Below, piece by piece: positions 53,780 through 58,901 of a stretch of 59,527 nucleotides of DNA. How positions within the stretch are numbered: the stretch's first letter is position 1; every line of letters begins with the position of its first letter. The notes beneath the pieces are model-generated. The model saw only the letters and a program-made list of their open reading frames with translations. It had not been told where the DNA came from and did no database searches. Made by a program: the position numbers and the translations under genes. Source of the DNA: Methanobacteriota archaeon (GTDB taxonomy: Archaea > Thermoplasmatota > Poseidoniia > Poseidoniales > Poseidoniaceae); contig JAACDG010000072.1 of NCBI GenBank assembly GCA_009937025.1, positions 1 through 59,527 on the forward strand. Direction: 5' to 3'.

Positions 53780-53782
53780 CTA
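53780..53782 (-). other. In-frame amber (TAG) codon at a conserved Trp position, joining ORFs 53780..55432 and 52454..53698
   Basis: 53782 minus 53698 = 84 nt = 28 codons, so the frame is the same. The context reads DPE-TAG-ELC, against W-x-x-C in six paralogous linkers. Confidence 0.85.
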
Positions 53783-55432
53783 TTCTGGATCTGTACCTGG
53801 TTCGTCTCCAGGGCCTGGTGCAGGCGAAGTGATATACAGCATCGAAGAGCCAGCAGGCCATTCAACGACAGAGTTAGGAGAATACGTTACTGAAGCATCC
53901 CAGACTGGACTGCCAGCAGCCACCCATTCTTCTTCACATGGGCAATCAACTGGAGCCCAAATATCCAAATTAGTAGTAGGGGAGTCGACATTTTGGTCGA
54001 GATATCCTTGAATTATAACTTCGTAATAATTTCCTGAGTTGGCTGGGTATTCGTAAACTTCACCGGTTGAAACTCGGGATAAATTGTCCCATACGCCTAC
54101 TGAGGCTGAACTGCCACATGGGCCGCCGCCTGCAGGTTCTCCTCCACCACAAAGTTCCCATTCATTGCCATCGGCAAAGGGTTGGGTTGGTGTTACGCCT
54201 GTTGTTGTTTGGCTAACAATCGCCATCCAGATGTCTCCGGTTCCAATTGGATACTCGACCATCATTCCAACATCGTAAACTGTGTTTGAATCCCATACTG
54301 GGCTACCAGCTGTCAACCAAATGTCATCACAATCACAGTACTTTTCTGACCATGCATCAAGATCCATTCCTGGCTCACCAACGATTTGGTTGTTGATTCC
54401 GGGAGAGACAGTATAGAAGTGTCCAGACCCGGTTGGGAATTCATAAATTTCTCCTGCAGATACAAGAGTTGTGTTATACCAGGGCATGCCTCCATAGCCG
54501 TTGAATTCCTCACATGGGCCACCGCTTGGCTCCTCACTAGGACAAAGTCTCCATTTATCGGTCTGATTTGGGGCATCGACGGGATAAGCGACCCAAGCAA
54601 TGTAGAGTGTGCCAGAGCCGGCTGGCCATTCAACAACTGAATTTGATGGGTAGGTCGCAGTAGAATCCCATACTGGCTCTCCACTATCGCTCCAGATATC
54701 CATACAATCACAATACTCTTCATCCCAAGCATCCAAATCGACACCAGGCTCTCCTACTGTTTGATTACTGATGGAAGGAGCCACCATGTAGAAATTGCTC
54801 GAATCTGCTGGATACTCGTAGATGTCCCCTTCGGAAACTAGCACTGTACTATCCCATACAGTAATGACCATTCCAATCAATTCATCACAAGGTGTTGAAT
54901 CTTCATGTGTACACTGAACCCAAAGGTCATTGCCTACAACTGGTTCATCTCCAGCCATGGTTCCAGCGTCTTGTGCAATCCAAGCACTACCGTTGTGAAG
55001 GACGATTCGCCACGCTTCATAAGGAACGGTAGCATCCCAACTAATGCCACTTGCTTCAGCAATTTCCAAACACGAGCAAGGGCCTATCCAATGGCCTTCT
55101 TCTACGGAACCACCAGATGAATTAATTTGAGTTTGGTAAAATTGGCCTGAGTTTGCTGGCCATTCAACAATGTCATCGACTGCATACGTGGCGCTGCTAT
55201 CCCATAGAGGTCCACCCATTCCGTCGCTAATTCCATTGAAAGAACAATCTGAATCAACGGAATTATTTCCATTCATCCCATTGCTTGCATTGCCTTGCCG
55301 CCCTGAAAATTTCACATTTTGTTCGCTATTATCTTCATAACCATTGTTTTTTTCTTCAAACGTATCCATTCCTGCAAGCGATACCTGTAAAGTAAGTAAA
55401 GCCACAATTATCAAACATATTGCATTCCGCAT
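53780..55432 (-). CDS. N-terminal portion of the repetitive cell-surface protein (signal peptide plus CBM5/12-like modules); lacks an anchor
   Basis: Signal MRNAICLIIVALLTLQVSLAG. Modules such as PVWDSTATYPSNSVVEWPAGSGTLYIAW match the chitin-binding type 3 / CBM5_12 pattern W..x..Y..G..V.[YW].G..Y. Confidence 0.75.
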   Translation of the reverse strand: MRNAICLIIVALLTLQVSLAGMDTFEEKNNGYEDNSEQNVKFSGRQGNASNGMNGNNSVDSDCSFNGISDGMGGPLWDSSATYAVDDIVEWPANSGQFYQTQINSSGGSVEEGHWIGPCSCLEIAEASGISWDATVPYEAWRIVLHNGSAWIAQDAGTMAGDEPVVGNDLWVQCTHEDSTPCDELIGMVITVWDSTVLVSEGDIYEYPADSSNFYMVAPSISNQTVGEPGVDLDAWDEEYCDCMDIWSDSGEPVWDSTATYPSNSVVEWPAGSGTLYIAWVAYPVDAPNQTDKWRLCPSEEPSGGPCEEFNGYGGMPWYNTTLVSAGEIYEFPTGSGHFYTVSPGINNQIVGEPGMDLDAWSEKYCDCDDIWLTAGSPVWDSNTVYDVGMMVEYPIGTGDIWMAIVSQTTTGVTPTQPFADGNEWELCGGGEPAGGGPCGSSASVGVWDNLSRVSTGEVYEYPANSGNYYEVIIQGYLDQNVDSPTTNLDIWAPVDCPCEEEWVAAGSPVWDASVTYSPNSVVEWPAGSSMLYITSPAPGPGDEPGTDPE

Positions 55433-55453
55433 ACCTTCTACTCACCATGCAGG

Positions 55454-55463
55454 TATATATTTA
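55454..55463 (-). promoter_or_regulatory. TATA-like box (AAATATATAC on minus strand) ~25 nt upstream of the surface-protein ATG
   Basis: AT-rich element whose spacing from ATG 55432 would suit a leaderless or short-leader archaeal transcript. Confidence 0.3.
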
Positions 55464-55485
55464 TTCTTCATTGACTCATATATCC

Positions 55486-55503
55486 GTAATGAAAAGTCAT
55501 TAC
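55486..55503 (-). terminator. Hairpin GTAATGA-(4 nt)-TCATTAC downstream of the mcm stop
   Basis: 7-bp stem, 4-nt loop, ~47 nt after the mcm TGA, in an AT-rich spacer. Confidence 0.25.
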
Positions 55504-55549
55504 ATATGAGAAAGGGAGAGGTTTTCCAAGGATTCACTGGAAAAGAGCA

Positions 55550-57739
55550 TCAAGCAATTTGCAATGTATCATAGCCTGAAGGTCGAAGCATTCGGCCGTG
55601 TTGGCAGAGCTTTTCAATGACATCTTCTGCAGTTGAACGGTTAATGTCGTAACGTTCTGCTTCGTTGAATACATCCAAGAGTTGGGCTATGCCGCCGTTG
55701 TTTGCAGACAAAGATGCGACGATTTCCATAATGGCTTTCTCTCGATTACGGACGGACCCTTTCTTGCCGGTGACAAGCGTTGTTTCATCGAAATTACCAC
55801 CCATCAAGTCTTCTCGCCAAAGACGAGTCATCAGAACTGCCCGTTCTGCATCTTCCAGCGTAGCCACTTGCGAGAGACGGATACGAGCGCTGGCTTCTGC
55901 TAAACGAGCCAAAGCCTCAAGAGAACGTGCGGTGATGGCAACGCTGTCGTTTGAGTCGCCGGTTTGTTTTCGAGTCTCAACATAAAATTTGACGATGATG
56001 TCTCGCGCTTCTTGTTCAAGATGGGGGTGAACTGTTCGCTTGGAATAAGCAATGTATTTTCGGATTAAATCCCGAGAGAGAACTTCGCCATGTTCCGAAG
56101 TGTGTTCTATGCCGGAACGAGATGTGCCCTTGGTTGGGTCAGGGGCGCTGCCTTCACTGACCAATAATTCACTTGTACCCTGCAAACGATTACTGATGAT
56201 GTGTTGTGCAATCTTCGCATCTTTCTCTGTTTCGGGGTCATCGGTTAACAACCCAATGATGTCAAATCGAGAAACCAAAGGAGGGGCGAGATTGATTTGT
56301 GCGGTGAATGGAACTTCTGAAACTGGCTCAAATCGACCGTTTTTCGGATTCGCTGCCGCAAGTACTGCGCAACGGGTACGAAGGCTCGCGTTGATTCCTG
56401 CTTTCGATATCGAAATTGGCTGTTGTTCCATCGCTTCGTGCATACTCGAACGGTCGCCTTCATTCATTTTGTCGAATTCGTCAATAGCCGCGAGTCCAAG
56501 GTCAGCAAGAACCAATGCTCCAGCCTCTAAAGTCCAACGCCCATCAGCAGCAGCATCCTGAACTGCGGCAGCGGTAAGACCTGCGGCCGATGCTGATTGG
56601 CCCGAGGTAAAGCGACCACGAGGAGAAATTGTCGACATGTAACTGAGCAGTTGGGATTTTGCAACACCAGGGTCACCCATGAGCAAAATATGGATGTCGC
56701 CACGGTTTCTTGTGCCGTCGGAATTGAGTCGGGCCACGCCACCAAATAATTGCAACATCAACGATTGCTTGACTGAAGTCATGCCAAAAATCGAAGGGGC
56801 GATGCTGTTGGTAAACAACTCGTAAATATCGGGACGGCGTGCCAACTCTTTGATTTCTAATTCCTCATCTTCGGTAATGACGATTTCCTCAAGAGGGATG
56901 TTTTGTCGCTCAAGTGAATGAATCCGCAAAAATATATCGAAAACTGGGGTGTCTTTTCCACCCTTTCTTTGAGACCGAATAAACAAAACTCCGTTTGCTT
57001 TGACACGGTCTCCTGGGTTGAGTTTACCTGCCAAATCATGTTCAGCGATACAGATGATTCGTTCAGGCTGAATCCCACCCTTCATTTGTTCAGGTAATTC
57101 CTGCAATTCCATAAATTGTGAATTGATGAGGATAGAATCTTTTTGATTCAATTCAAAGCGAGTTTGACGCTTTGCTCGACCGCATCCACCGTCTAATTGC
57201 TGGCATTCGATTGGTTCGATGAGTTCTTGTTCATTTGGTTGATTGACAATCATCGAATGGCCGCAGGCAACACATTCGAACGTCGCAGCATAGATACGGG
57301 GTCGGACGCCTGAAATTTTGGTCGTAACAGCGTCGATTGCAAGCATCATGCCAATGTCATCTGCGCGTAGTTGTGATACGGTTCGGACTTGGTCAACGGG
57401 GAGGTGAACAATGCGAACGAATGGGTACATCGTGCTGTGTCCAGCGTCCAAAAGGAATTGGCGTAAAGCTTGGTTCGAGGCATGGAAATGAAGTTCCGGG
57501 TGTTGAACGATGTCATGGGCAAACTCGTGGTCAAATCCTTCAATAACACGATACGAAACTTCAAGCGATTGTTCATCGGGCCACATCTGAGCAAGGTTGT
57601 GCACCGATTCTGCGAAGTGGTCTTGAATCAAAGAAGTCCAACGAGCAGGGAGGTCGAATTCTTGAAGCATTTTGCGCACCTGATAAACGCGGGAGAGGCT
57701 CCCGACTTCCAAACAATATCGCCAACGGTATTTAGCCAT
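55550..57739 (-). CDS. mcm: MCM replicative helicase
   Basis: Zn-motif region CVACGH...CQQLDGGC, Walker A ILLMGDPGVAKSQLL, Walker B AAIDEFDKM, arginine finger SRFDII, C-terminal winged-helix-like tail. Confidence 0.95.
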   Translation of the reverse strand: MAKYRWRYCLEVGSLSRVYQVRKMLQEFDLPARWTSLIQDHFAESVHNLAQMWPDEQSLEVSYRVIEGFDHEFAHDIVQHPELHFHASNQALRQFLLDAGHSTMYPFVRIVHLPVDQVRTVSQLRADDIGMMLAIDAVTTKISGVRPRIYAATFECVACGHSMIVNQPNEQELIEPIECQQLDGGCGRAKRQTRFELNQKDSILINSQFMELQELPEQMKGGIQPERIICIAEHDLAGKLNPGDRVKANGVLFIRSQRKGGKDTPVFDIFLRIHSLERQNIPLEEIVITEDEELEIKELARRPDIYELFTNSIAPSIFGMTSVKQSLMLQLFGGVARLNSDGTRNRGDIHILLMGDPGVAKSQLLSYMSTISPRGRFTSGQSASAAGLTAAAVQDAAADGRWTLEAGALVLADLGLAAIDEFDKMNEGDRSSMHEAMEQQPISISKAGINASLRTRCAVLAAANPKNGRFEPVSEVPFTAQINLAPPLVSRFDIIGLLTDDPETEKDAKIAQHIISNRLQGTSELLVSEGSAPDPTKGTSRSGIEHTSEHGEVLSRDLIRKYIAYSKRTVHPHLEQEARDIIVKFYVETRKQTGDSNDSVAITARSLEALARLAEASARIRLSQVATLEDAERAVLMTRLWREDLMGGNFDETTLVTGKKGSVRNREKAIMEIVASLSANNGGIAQLLDVFNEAERYDINRSTAEDVIEKLCQHGRMLRPSGYDTLQIA

Positions 57740-57756
57740 GACCTCGCGAAAATCCT

Positions 57757-57777
57757 ACCCCTCCGTTTCCATTGGAA
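57757..57777 (-). promoter_or_regulatory. Origin-recognition-box (ORB)-like element TTCCAATGGAAACGGAGGGGT
   Basis: The minus strand shows a perfect TTCCA/TGGAA dyad, then AAC, then GGAGGGGT, 18 nt upstream of the mcm ATG. Confidence 0.4.
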
Positions 57778-57794
57778 AAGAGATGGTTTGACGC

Positions 57795-57812
57795 GCCCCG
57801 TTTACATTGGAA
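57795..57812 (-). promoter_or_regulatory. Second, degenerate ORB-like element TTCCAATGTAAACGGGGC
   Basis: Same orientation, 35 nt from the first. Shares TTCCAATG.AAACGG and a G-rich tail. Confidence 0.3.
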
Positions 57813-57836
57813 ATTGATGTCCACTGCCAAATTGCC

Positions 57837-58901
57837 ATGACCGCAGATAACATGAGGAAGGAGAGCGTCGCTTGGGGTATGCCGAAGCATGCATTTGCAC
57901 CCGTTGAAGGTCGTATCGAGAGATGGGTCTTGGACTCCCCGCTTTTAGAAAACCGGCTGGGCGACCCGACTGAGCGTGAAATCCTCACCCACATTTCTCC
58001 CGAAGGAACCGCTTTGATGGAACAAGGAACCGCTTTGCCAGTGCTGATTTATTTGGCTCCATTCACTTCATCAGGACCTGCTCGTGCAGGATGGAAAGCA
58101 TTCGCTGAAACATTGCCCCAGCGTCATGAGCGTCTGGTTAAATCTGGCAAAATGAAGCCGGTCATCTTGGTCATGCCGGATACATTTACTACGCTTGGAG
58201 GAAACCAATTTGTTGATTCACCAGTGCTGGGAAAGTGGTCATCTTGGCTTGCAGAAGCTCTGAAGCCAGCCATTCAAACGCGCTATTCGACCAATGAAAA
58301 GTTTGGGTTAATTGGAAAATCTTCTGGAGGATACGGCGCATTGGTCAATGCCATGCTGCAACCCAATTCATGGAATGCTGTTGCGAGTCATTCAGGTGAT
58401 GTTGGTTTCGAGACAATGTTTTTGCCGACCTTTGCCGAAACGTTGACTCATGTCCACAGATTTGGCGGGGTTGCACCCTATGTCCAACATGTTCGCGATG
58501 CTGCGGCTCTTTCGGGACCTGATTTTCATTCACTGATGATTTGTGCAATGGCTGCATCATACGACCCTCGCGCACCAAGTCCAGGGAATCCTCTTGGAAT
58601 TGTCTTACCACTTGATGAGAAGACCGCTGTCATCGAAAACGAAGCATGGTCTCGCTGGATGGATTTTGACCCGTTGATGCTTGTCGAATCCAATCATTCT
58701 GCACTGGCGAAGTTGGATTGTCTATTGATTGATTGTGGGAGTCGAGACCAATACCATATCCAATATGGAAGTCGGCGATTTGTCGAACGTTTGGCGGCAT
58801 TTGGAATCGAACATACTTGGGAAGAATTTGATGGCACCCATTCTGGAATTGATTTTAGATTAGATACAAGTTTTTCGCAATTGTCGAAGGTCTTGTCCTA
58901 A
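57837..58901 (+). CDS. Alpha/beta hydrolase, putative esterase (enterochelin-esterase/esterase D-like)
   Basis: GLIGKSSGGYGAL nucleophile elbow and downstream His-containing C-terminus. The track start at 57807 is TTG; first ATG is 57837. Confidence 0.75.
   Translation: MTADNMRKESVAWGMPKHAFAPVEGRIERWVLDSPLLENRLGDPTEREILTHISPEGTALMEQGTALPVLIYLAPFTSSGPARAGWKAFAETLPQRHERLVKSGKMKPVILVMPDTFTTLGGNQFVDSPVLGKWSSWLAEALKPAIQTRYSTNEKFGLIGKSSGGYGALVNAMLQPNSWNAVASHSGDVGFETMFLPTFAETLTHVHRFGGVAPYVQHVRDAAALSGPDFHSLMICAMAASYDPRAPSPGNPLGIVLPLDEKTAVIENEAWSRWMDFDPLMLVESNHSALAKLDCLLIDCGSRDQYHIQYGSRRFVERLAAFGIEHTWEEFDGTHSGIDFRLDTSFSQLSKVLS

Follow-up and report, generated by a model that had tools for sequence, protein, structure and literature searches.

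Does the origin recognition box (ORB) in front of the replicative helicase gene mcm of a marine group II archaeon mark an origin of replication, or does it serve the transcription of mcm itself? The question arises from contig JAACDG010000072.1 of the Poseidoniaceae assembly GCA_009937025.1, of which positions 1 to 59,527, in nucleotides (nt), were analysed and are here called the window. An original prediction, made from the letters of this DNA alone, had placed two ORB-like repeats in the spacer upstream of mcm and had offered both functions. Comparison with relatives, with published consensus sequences, and with public metagenome contigs indicates that one of the two repeats is a complete, canonical ORB, that it is kept at the same place before mcm throughout the family and beyond it, and that it stands at a nearly constant distance from a predicted mcm TATA box. 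We give somewhat better than an even chance to the view that this box is a site at which Orc1/Cdc6, or a close paralogue, regulates the mcm promoter.

A full origin recognition box upstream of mcm

The stronger of the two repeats, ORB1, lies between mcm and a divergently oriented esterase gene:

57757..57777, minus strand: ORB1, TTCCAATGGAAACGGAGGGGT, a full origin recognition box that matches the full pattern exactly, has the spacing of the published consensus, and is conserved

Read on the minus strand, from the esterase side to the mcm side, the region runs ...TTTGGCAGTGGACATCAATTTCCAATGTAAACGGGGCGCGTCAAACCATCTCTTTTCCAATGGAAACGGAGGGGTAGGATTTTCGCGAGGTCATGGCTAAATACCG..., and within it ORB1 consists of a TCCAATGGA dyad, the letters AAC, a linker of 3 nt, and, at the end that faces mcm, the G-string GGGGT. 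The core, TTCCAATGGAAAC at 57777-57765, has the TCCA-N-TGGA dyad followed by AAAC/T, and the G-string stands at the canonical distance 3' of the dyad (GGA-GGGGT). ORB1 matches the full ORB pattern TCCANTGGAAAYNNNGGGGT exactly. When up to three mismatches to this pattern are allowed, the window holds ORB1 only, together with the ORB1 dyad read on the opposite strand; shuffled sequence gives a mean of 0.96 matches at the same tolerance. By our own arithmetic, about 5e-5 exact full-ORB matches would be expected in a 59.5-kb window.

Both repeats are located as originally described: they lie 35 nt apart as direct repeats on the mcm strand. The identification of 57777-57757 as an ORB is borne out by its strict conservation and by the way it aligns with consensus sequences in the literature. 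The comparison with published ORB alignments that had been proposed along with the prediction gives a match. In the sister lineage Methanomassiliicoccales the ORB consensus is GTTCCAGTGGAAATGG-AGGGGTA (PMC4153887), with which ORB1 shares the dyad, AAAC, a linker of the same 3 nt, and GGGGTA. The pan-archaeal consensus of Pelve et al., in the form quoted in PMC4153887, is CTTCCAGTGGAAACGAAAGGGGT. The Pyrococcus furiosus ORB1 fragment used in binding assays has the core TTCCAGTGGAAAT in common with the ORB1 of the window and a longer linker (PMC1904270).

Conservation across marine group II

Loci around 80 relatives of the window MCM were fetched, with protein identities to it of 63 to 96%. All of these relatives belong to Poseidoniaceae (marine group IIa [MGIIa]), the closest being titled, e.g., Poseidonia sp. 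Conservation was counted in the 76 of the 80 loci that have at least 150 nt of DNA upstream of mcm, and an ORB is present at the same place in 76/76, with linker length and orientation invariant. Minor variants (TTGCAGTGGAAAC, TTCCACAGGAAAC, and CTCCACCGGAAAC) occur, and the family consensus is yTCCAGTGGAAAyrAAGGGGTr. In a profile of 32 nonredundant spacers (mutual identity of <80%) the ORB is the sole near-invariant block, and its flanks are essentially randomised. No further full ORB was found in the window or in the 1.02 Mb of the 80 mcm loci.

The box is also retained where the neighbourhood of mcm is different. The esterase gene is the divergent neighbour in the window and in 71 relatives' loci, but in Thalassarchaeaceae (marine group IIb [MGIIb]; L231 to L237) this position is held by a gene for a 144-amino-acid (aa) PCC-domain (PF03479) protein, and the gene after mcm, overlapped by it, is gatE (GatB_N, GatB_Yqey). 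The Thalassarchaeaceae ORB, yTCCACTGGAAGCAATGGGGT, is found upstream of both TTCATAGG and the mcm ATG, at distances of 21 and 94 nt, respectively, with a mini-ORB, TTGCAGTAGAAGC, 53 nt further upstream. The same ORB-mcm layout is found in a marine Thermoplasmatota contig (L172), whose MCM is 40% identical to that of the window and 54 to 58% identical to those of Thalassarchaeaceae. Since the ORB is kept with mcm whether the neighbour encodes the esterase or the PCC-domain protein, the box follows mcm and not the neighbour.

This conservation bears on the alternative that ORB1 is a chance resemblance without function. Exact matches do arise by chance in very large databases: the exact ORB at L148:8606-8625 was rejected as a candidate because it lies within a bacterial gene, a 934-aa open reading frame (ORF) with PKD domains and a type IX secretion signal, and an isolated exact match from such a source can therefore be accidental. 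For the mcm box we regard chance as vanishingly improbable and effectively excluded, because the box is conserved at one position amid randomised flanks, in every Poseidoniaceae locus counted and in two further lineages, and because the expectation for the window is as low as that given above.

Revised gene starts and predicted promoter organization

The original prediction had described a spacer of 97 nt, a length that was based on over-extended ORFs and that comparison with relatives revises to 208 nt. Translation of mcm most likely starts at the ATG at 57670 (Met24), because MCM relatives align only from about residue 20 to 25 of the window ORF, the ATG at 57739 is unconserved (it is missing in L001, L002, and L005), and a GGTG motif precedes Met24. 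For the esterase gene the most likely start is the ATG at 57879, because most alignments with relatives begin at residue 15. Both flanking ORFs would thus be over-extended at their 5' ends (57671-57739 and 57837-57878), which leaves a spacer of 57671-57878. The features of the region are as follows:

55550..57670, minus strand: mcm coding sequence from the revised start (MLQEFDL...), 706 aa, Pfam MCM_OB, MCM, and MCM_lid
57671..57878, no strand: divergent promoter spacer, 208 nt, GC content of 0.51, without an AT-rich unwinding element
57677..57681, minus strand: Shine-Dalgarno-like AGGTG, 6 nt before the revised mcm start; GGTG or GGAGGTG is conserved across loci
57721..57728, minus strand: CCGTTGGC, which relatives have as GTTGRC/GTCGAC; a block found conserved in the profile of 32 spacers, after the predicted TATA box and ahead of the predicted transcription start
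57728..57735, minus strand: CTAAATAC, the predicted TATA box of mcm, which follows the ORB1 G-string after 22 nt and is assigned from conservation and position
57800..57807, plus strand: predicted esterase TATA box GTTTACAT, 22 nt from the end of the ORB1 dyad and overlapping the second repeat, likewise a tentative assignment
57879..58901, plus strand: divergent esterase gene from the revised start (MPKHAF...), 340 aa, Pfam match to PF00756

The TATA-like octamer upstream of mcm is the second most conserved block of the spacer, with CATAAAC, CATATAC, or TTATATG in relatives, and it begins 22 to 25 nt after the GGGG run in 71 of the 76 loci. How far the start codon lies from the G-string is less constant, ranging between 64 and 90 nt across loci. 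At the offset of the esterase TATA box, MGIIa relatives have a T-rich or TTTA-type sequence. With predicted TATA boxes 22 nt from either end, ORB1 would lie midway between two divergent promoters, and we infer that, counted from the predicted start of mcm transcription, it spans about -72 to -51, with the transcription factor B recognition element expected immediately downstream of it. Among low-depth Logan metatranscriptome contigs, which carry no strand assignment, two end at 57718. A search for structured RNA in 55300-58100 gave no Rfam match at an E value of ≤1 other than one spurious small nucleolar RNA match far below threshold.

The spacing and linkage of the box also bear on the proposal that Orc1/Cdc6 binds ORB1 for reasons unrelated to either transcription or initiation, with the site acting as a titration sink (datA-like) or as an anchor for chromosome organisation or cohesion. 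There are precedents for ORBs in such places: lone ORBs lie off the origins in a related order (PMC4153887), and the ORB cluster in Pyrococcus dp1 is inside a region bound by Cdc6 in vivo (PMC1904270). A sink or anchor would, however, have no need to stand at a constant 22 nt and in one orientation with respect to the mcm TATA box, nor would it need to accompany mcm when the neighbouring gene changes, and we consider this proposal very unlikely.

Weaker ORB-like sites in the spacer

Two weaker elements lie upstream of ORB1, the second of which was not part of the original prediction:

57795..57812, minus strand: ORB2, mini-ORB TTCCAATGTAAACGGGGC, a direct repeat 35 nt upstream of ORB1 that overlaps the predicted esterase TATA box
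57817..57829, minus strand: "-50 element," TGGCAGTGGACAT, a weak dyad resembling a mini-ORB, which precedes ORB1 by 50 nt

The second repeat had been described as a degenerate copy of the first. It does have the 13-nt core, with one change (TGG to TGT), but it lacks the G-string of a full ORB and has four mismatches to the full pattern, and it is therefore only a mini-ORB. Its score is 14.5 on a position-weight matrix built from the main ORB cores, which themselves score 13 to 23; a score of ≥14 was taken as mini-ORB grade. A second site of this quality occurs in about 35 of the 76 loci, 33 to 38 nt away and in an orientation that depends on the clade. By the matrix scan it is direct at 33 nt in the window and part of its genus, inverted at 35 to 37 nt in L012, L014, L028, and L034 to L036, and direct at 38 nt in L061 to L080. 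Because other members of the window genus (L003, L004, L007, L011, L013, L015, and L016) are without a second site, ORB2 is, judged from these alignments, a real but clade-specific element.

The -50 element is kept 50 to 51 nt upstream of the ORB in most clades. Its 13-nt motif, T[TG][GC]CAGTGGACA[CT], is one base away from the ORB core variant TTGCAGTGGAAAC. Outside mcm spacers it is absent from the window and, apart from the loci described below, from 965 kb of Poseidoniaceae loci. The conserved block that contains it (57817-57850) was also considered as a C/D-box RNA or as coding sequence and was rejected as either by inspection; reading frame and ATG are not conserved.

Comparison with the organisation of an origin

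A canonical full ORB accompanied by one or two mini-ORB-like sites within 75 nt raises the possibility that the mcm-esterase spacer is a primary or secondary replication origin, at which Orc1 bound to ORB1 and the mini-ORBs would load MCM. The recurrence of the second site in about 35 of the 76 loci, inverted in some clades (L012, L014, L028, and L034 to L036), is consistent with such a role, and multiple origins are possible in archaea (PMC4010727). Several observations nevertheless lead us to think it unlikely.

First, an origin of the known kind would be expected to have several ORBs, including an inverted pair, and the spacer has a single full ORB with no inverted full partner. The second site changes in position, orientation, and presence even within a genus, and the one invariant ORB is phased to a TATA box.

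Second, the spacer is not AT-rich, as the original prediction had cautioned: its GC content is 0.51 versus 0.468 for the window, so that it is richer in GC than average, and the lowest GC content of any 40 nt within it is 0.375. To compare loci, an AT-richness index was defined as the lowest 60-nt GC content within ±300 nt of the ORB minus the GC content of the locus. Over 74 mcm loci the median of this index (-0.116) is practically that of random positions drawn from them (-0.12), whereas 27 Orc1-linked ORB loci have a median of -0.232; the value for the mcm ORB of the window is -0.05. By this index no AT-rich unwinding element is present in the spacer of the window or in the mcm loci of the 74 relatives.

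Third, no orc1/cdc6-like ORF was found in the window, again in agreement with the original prediction, or within about 6 kb on either side in the 80 mcm loci; the window itself ends 1.8 kb past the ORB1 site, and its skew profile gives no pointer either toward or away from an origin. The screen was also applied to 120 loci (L081 to L200) obtained by searching public metagenome contigs with the full ORB pattern, and in 29 of these an Orc1/Cdc6-like gene lies beside the ORB, often with a gene for the small subunit of PolD nearby. These 29 Orc1-linked loci serve as a positive control for the ORB pattern.

By every sequence criterion examined, then, the mcm site is not organised like an origin. 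Of the two functions that had been put forward for it, that of an origin is disfavoured by the number of ORBs, the AT content, and the gene context, and control of mcm transcription gains from the phasing, orientation, and linkage of the box.

The absence of an unwinding element might be circumvented if negative supercoiling from the divergent promoters took its place. In its most explicit form, this idea makes the spacer a minimal helicase-loading site, or origin without an unwinding element, with Orc1 at ORB1 and at the -50 mini-ORB and with promoter supercoiling opening the DNA. We hold this to be quite unlikely. If it were true, newly made MCM would be loaded in cis beside its own gene, between divergent promoters about 65 nt apart, and Poseidoniales would have a second, transcription-dependent origin adjoining the helicase gene.

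The AT-rich stretch at 55451-55510, which had been singled out at the other end of mcm, was set aside: it is the terminator/promoter region between mcm and the next gene, with a TATA-like AATAAATATATA and no full ORB. The interval 55433-55549 begins, directly after the mcm stop, with a degenerate ORB-like string, TTTTCCAGTGAATCCTTGGAAAAC, followed by this AT-rich stretch, in which the resemblance of AATAAATATATA to a TATA box is strong. The first ATG of the gene after mcm (55432) is too near this TATA for a normal promoter, and its start may be mis-set; the ORF in question (53780-55432, minus strand; 550 aa) had no Pfam match.

Among the genes next to ORBs in the metagenome loci, a PolD small-subunit-like gene was seen in 10 loci. 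Two families of small proteins were also recurrent, one of about 145 aa in 28 loci and one of about 250 aa in 16, both winged-helix-like by eye.

A candidate origin in the ferredoxin/beta-CASP spacer

The canonical arrangement, an inverted ORB pair with AT-rich DNA, was found elsewhere in Poseidoniaceae, which argues further against an origin beside mcm. In two of the metagenome matches (L157 and L140), a gene for a beta-CASP nuclease is preceded by a pair of full ORBs in inverted orientation. At NCBI, the beta-CASP protein has an 89% identical match that bears the label Candidatus Poseidoniaceae archaeon, and it is because of this match, not tetranucleotides alone, that the ferredoxin/beta-CASP locus is taken as Poseidoniaceae. 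Assignment of taxa by tetranucleotide frequency alone was abandoned as unreliable at r values of about 0.89: a bacterial contig scored 0.86, and the Orc1 of L120 is of the Bathyarchaeia/Thermoproteota type, contrary to its tetranucleotide assignment.

In five Poseidoniaceae lineages with GC contents of 0.43 to 0.55 (L201, L211, L238, L239, and L241), two inverted full ORBs 135 to 144 nt apart lie in the ferredoxin/beta-CASP spacer, which is about 320 nt long:

L201:9788-9962, inverted ORB pair
L211:9775-9958, inverted ORB pair
L238 and L239:9779-9958, inverted ORB pair
L241:9841-10015, inverted ORB pair

The dyads point inward, the intervening DNA has a GC content of 0.28 to 0.41, and the AT-richest 60-nt segments, with GC contents of 0.15 to 0.32, fall between or just outside the ORBs. 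The best tetranucleotide match of L238 to L240 is the window analysed here (r = 0.936), which suggests that they are of the same genus. No orc1 gene was found within 10 kb of the inverted pair. At the sequence level, this spacer is the best candidate for a chromosomal origin that we have seen for the group.

The -50 motif recurs here: four of the five loci with inverted pairs have it next to the start of the ferredoxin gene (L201:9638, L238 and L239:9662, and L241:9691), so that two ORB-bearing spacers, that of mcm and that of ferredoxin/beta-CASP, share a second element. That the element is common only to these two spacers is a point in favour of an origin function for the spacer of mcm.

Possible control of mcm by the initiator

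Regulation of mcm through ORB1 is favoured because the ORB is phased to a TATA-like box, has a fixed orientation, and stays linked to mcm across a change of neighbour. If the TATA box is correctly identified, the fixed distance of the G-string from it and the fixed orientation are those of a promoter-proximal regulator site. In the Aeropyrum ORC1-ORB structure the G-string is reportedly on the side of the AAA+ domain, so the AAA+ domain would face the mcm promoter. Orc1 would contact the dyad through its winged helix and the G-string side through its AAA+ domain, with bending of the DNA; the winged helix is known to bind the conserved mini-ORB core, and the AAA+ initiator-specific motif is known to bind adjacent DNA (PMC3089459). 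From this activator-type position Orc1 might modulate the recruitment of TBP, TFB, and RNA polymerase to mcm, and helicase synthesis would then depend on how much initiator is present or on its nucleotide state. Cooperative binding could be contributed by ORB2 and the -50 element, which may have an effect on the esterase promoter as well. Marine group II has a slow-evolving gene of the Orc1/Cdc6.1 type (PMC4153887). Both the proposed binding of Orc1 and the assignments of TATA boxes and transcription starts are read from the DNA, which is compatible with activation as well as with repression.

Some points weigh against control of mcm by the initiator. A fixed spacing would be expected anyway for a site squeezed between tightly packed divergent promoters. 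Helicase loading, too, would be in keeping with the recurrence of second and third ORB-like sites and with a -50 element that also occurs at the candidate origin. The predicted TATA boxes and transcription start were placed by conservation and position. Finally, three RNA contigs (X2, X4, and X7) span the whole spacer, including the ORB, and these may be DNA carry-over.

A related possibility keeps the promoter function and changes the protein: the ORB sequence might have been taken over by another winged-helix regulator or by a non-initiator Orc1 paralogue, with the true initiator inactive at this site. Orc1-2 of Sulfolobales is reported to be such a protein, a dedicated regulator and not an initiator (PMC6061795 and PMC9738581). 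The mcm ORB is, however, indistinguishable from the origin-type ORBs of the candidate origin in the same family, and ORB or mini-ORB binding is reported for Orc1-1, with Orc1-2 not among the reported binders. Orc1-2 is also said to recognise a promoter motif that differs from the ORB. We find replacement of the initiator at this site distinctly improbable.

Relation to known systems

ORB1 resembles the ORBs of oriC1-type origins (Sulfolobus oriC1, Pyrococcus oriC, Aeropyrum ori1, and the predicted Methanomassiliicoccales origins) in its dyad, TCCAGTGGA, in AAAC/T, in its short linker, and in GGGGT. The surroundings differ. At oriC1-type origins the ORBs are grouped, with inverted members around an AT-rich unwinding element beside orc1/cdc6, whereas the mcm site is one full ORB in a GC-normal promoter spacer of 208 nt with no initiator gene near.

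The second ORB/mini-ORB cluster of Thermococcales, in dp1 (Matsunaga et al. 2007, PMC1904270), likewise belongs to a replication gene and is separate from the repeat cluster of oriC, in a region bound by Cdc6/Orc1. That cluster differs in having several repeats, in lying inside coding sequence, and in being ≤5 kb from oriC and cdc6; the mcm box lies by itself between two genes, and no second full ORB occurs for about 55 kb in one direction or for 6 kb in the other. Lone ORBs are also present in "Ca. Methanomassiliicoccus intestinalis" (ORB3, downstream of ftsZ, and ORB4; Borrel et al. 2014, PMC4153887), and these too are single, canonical, and far from the predicted origin. They come from one genome of a sister Thermoplasmatota lineage, and no conservation, promoter context, or link to mcm is reported for them.

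Sulfolobales Orc1-2 offers a parallel at the level of the protein, being an Orc1/Cdc6-family member that acts at promoters, in this case as a global regulator of the DNA damage response (PMC6061795 and PMC9738581). It differs in being a dedicated non-initiator paralogue, and control of mcm through an ORB is not described for it. Orc1-2, the lone ORBs, and the dp1 cluster are the precedents on which the regulatory view of the mcm box can draw. A full-text search of the open literature found no paper that ties an ORB or Orc1 to an mcm promoter and none on the origins of marine group II; nor did it yield a description of a circuit by which an initiator sets the supply of helicase. Bacteria provide an analogy: DnaA boxes in promoters, as in dnaA autoregulation and at nrdAB, reuse the box of the initiator as a promoter element and tie expression to initiator status. 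The parallel is one of logic only, as it concerns another protein family and another domain of life.

Implications for marine group II archaea

The archaea of marine group II (Poseidoniales) are among the most abundant in the surface ocean, are uncultured, and have a replication biology that is known from gene inventories only. The analysis sets the mcm site apart from a far better origin candidate, the inverted ORB pair of the ferredoxin/beta-CASP spacer. Estimates of growth rate that use metagenomic read depth would gain a point of reference from this candidate, which would also supply DNA fragments for binding assays. For the mcm promoter itself, a canonical initiator box that has been fixed across the order suggests a circuit in which the replication initiator would set the supply of the replicative helicase.

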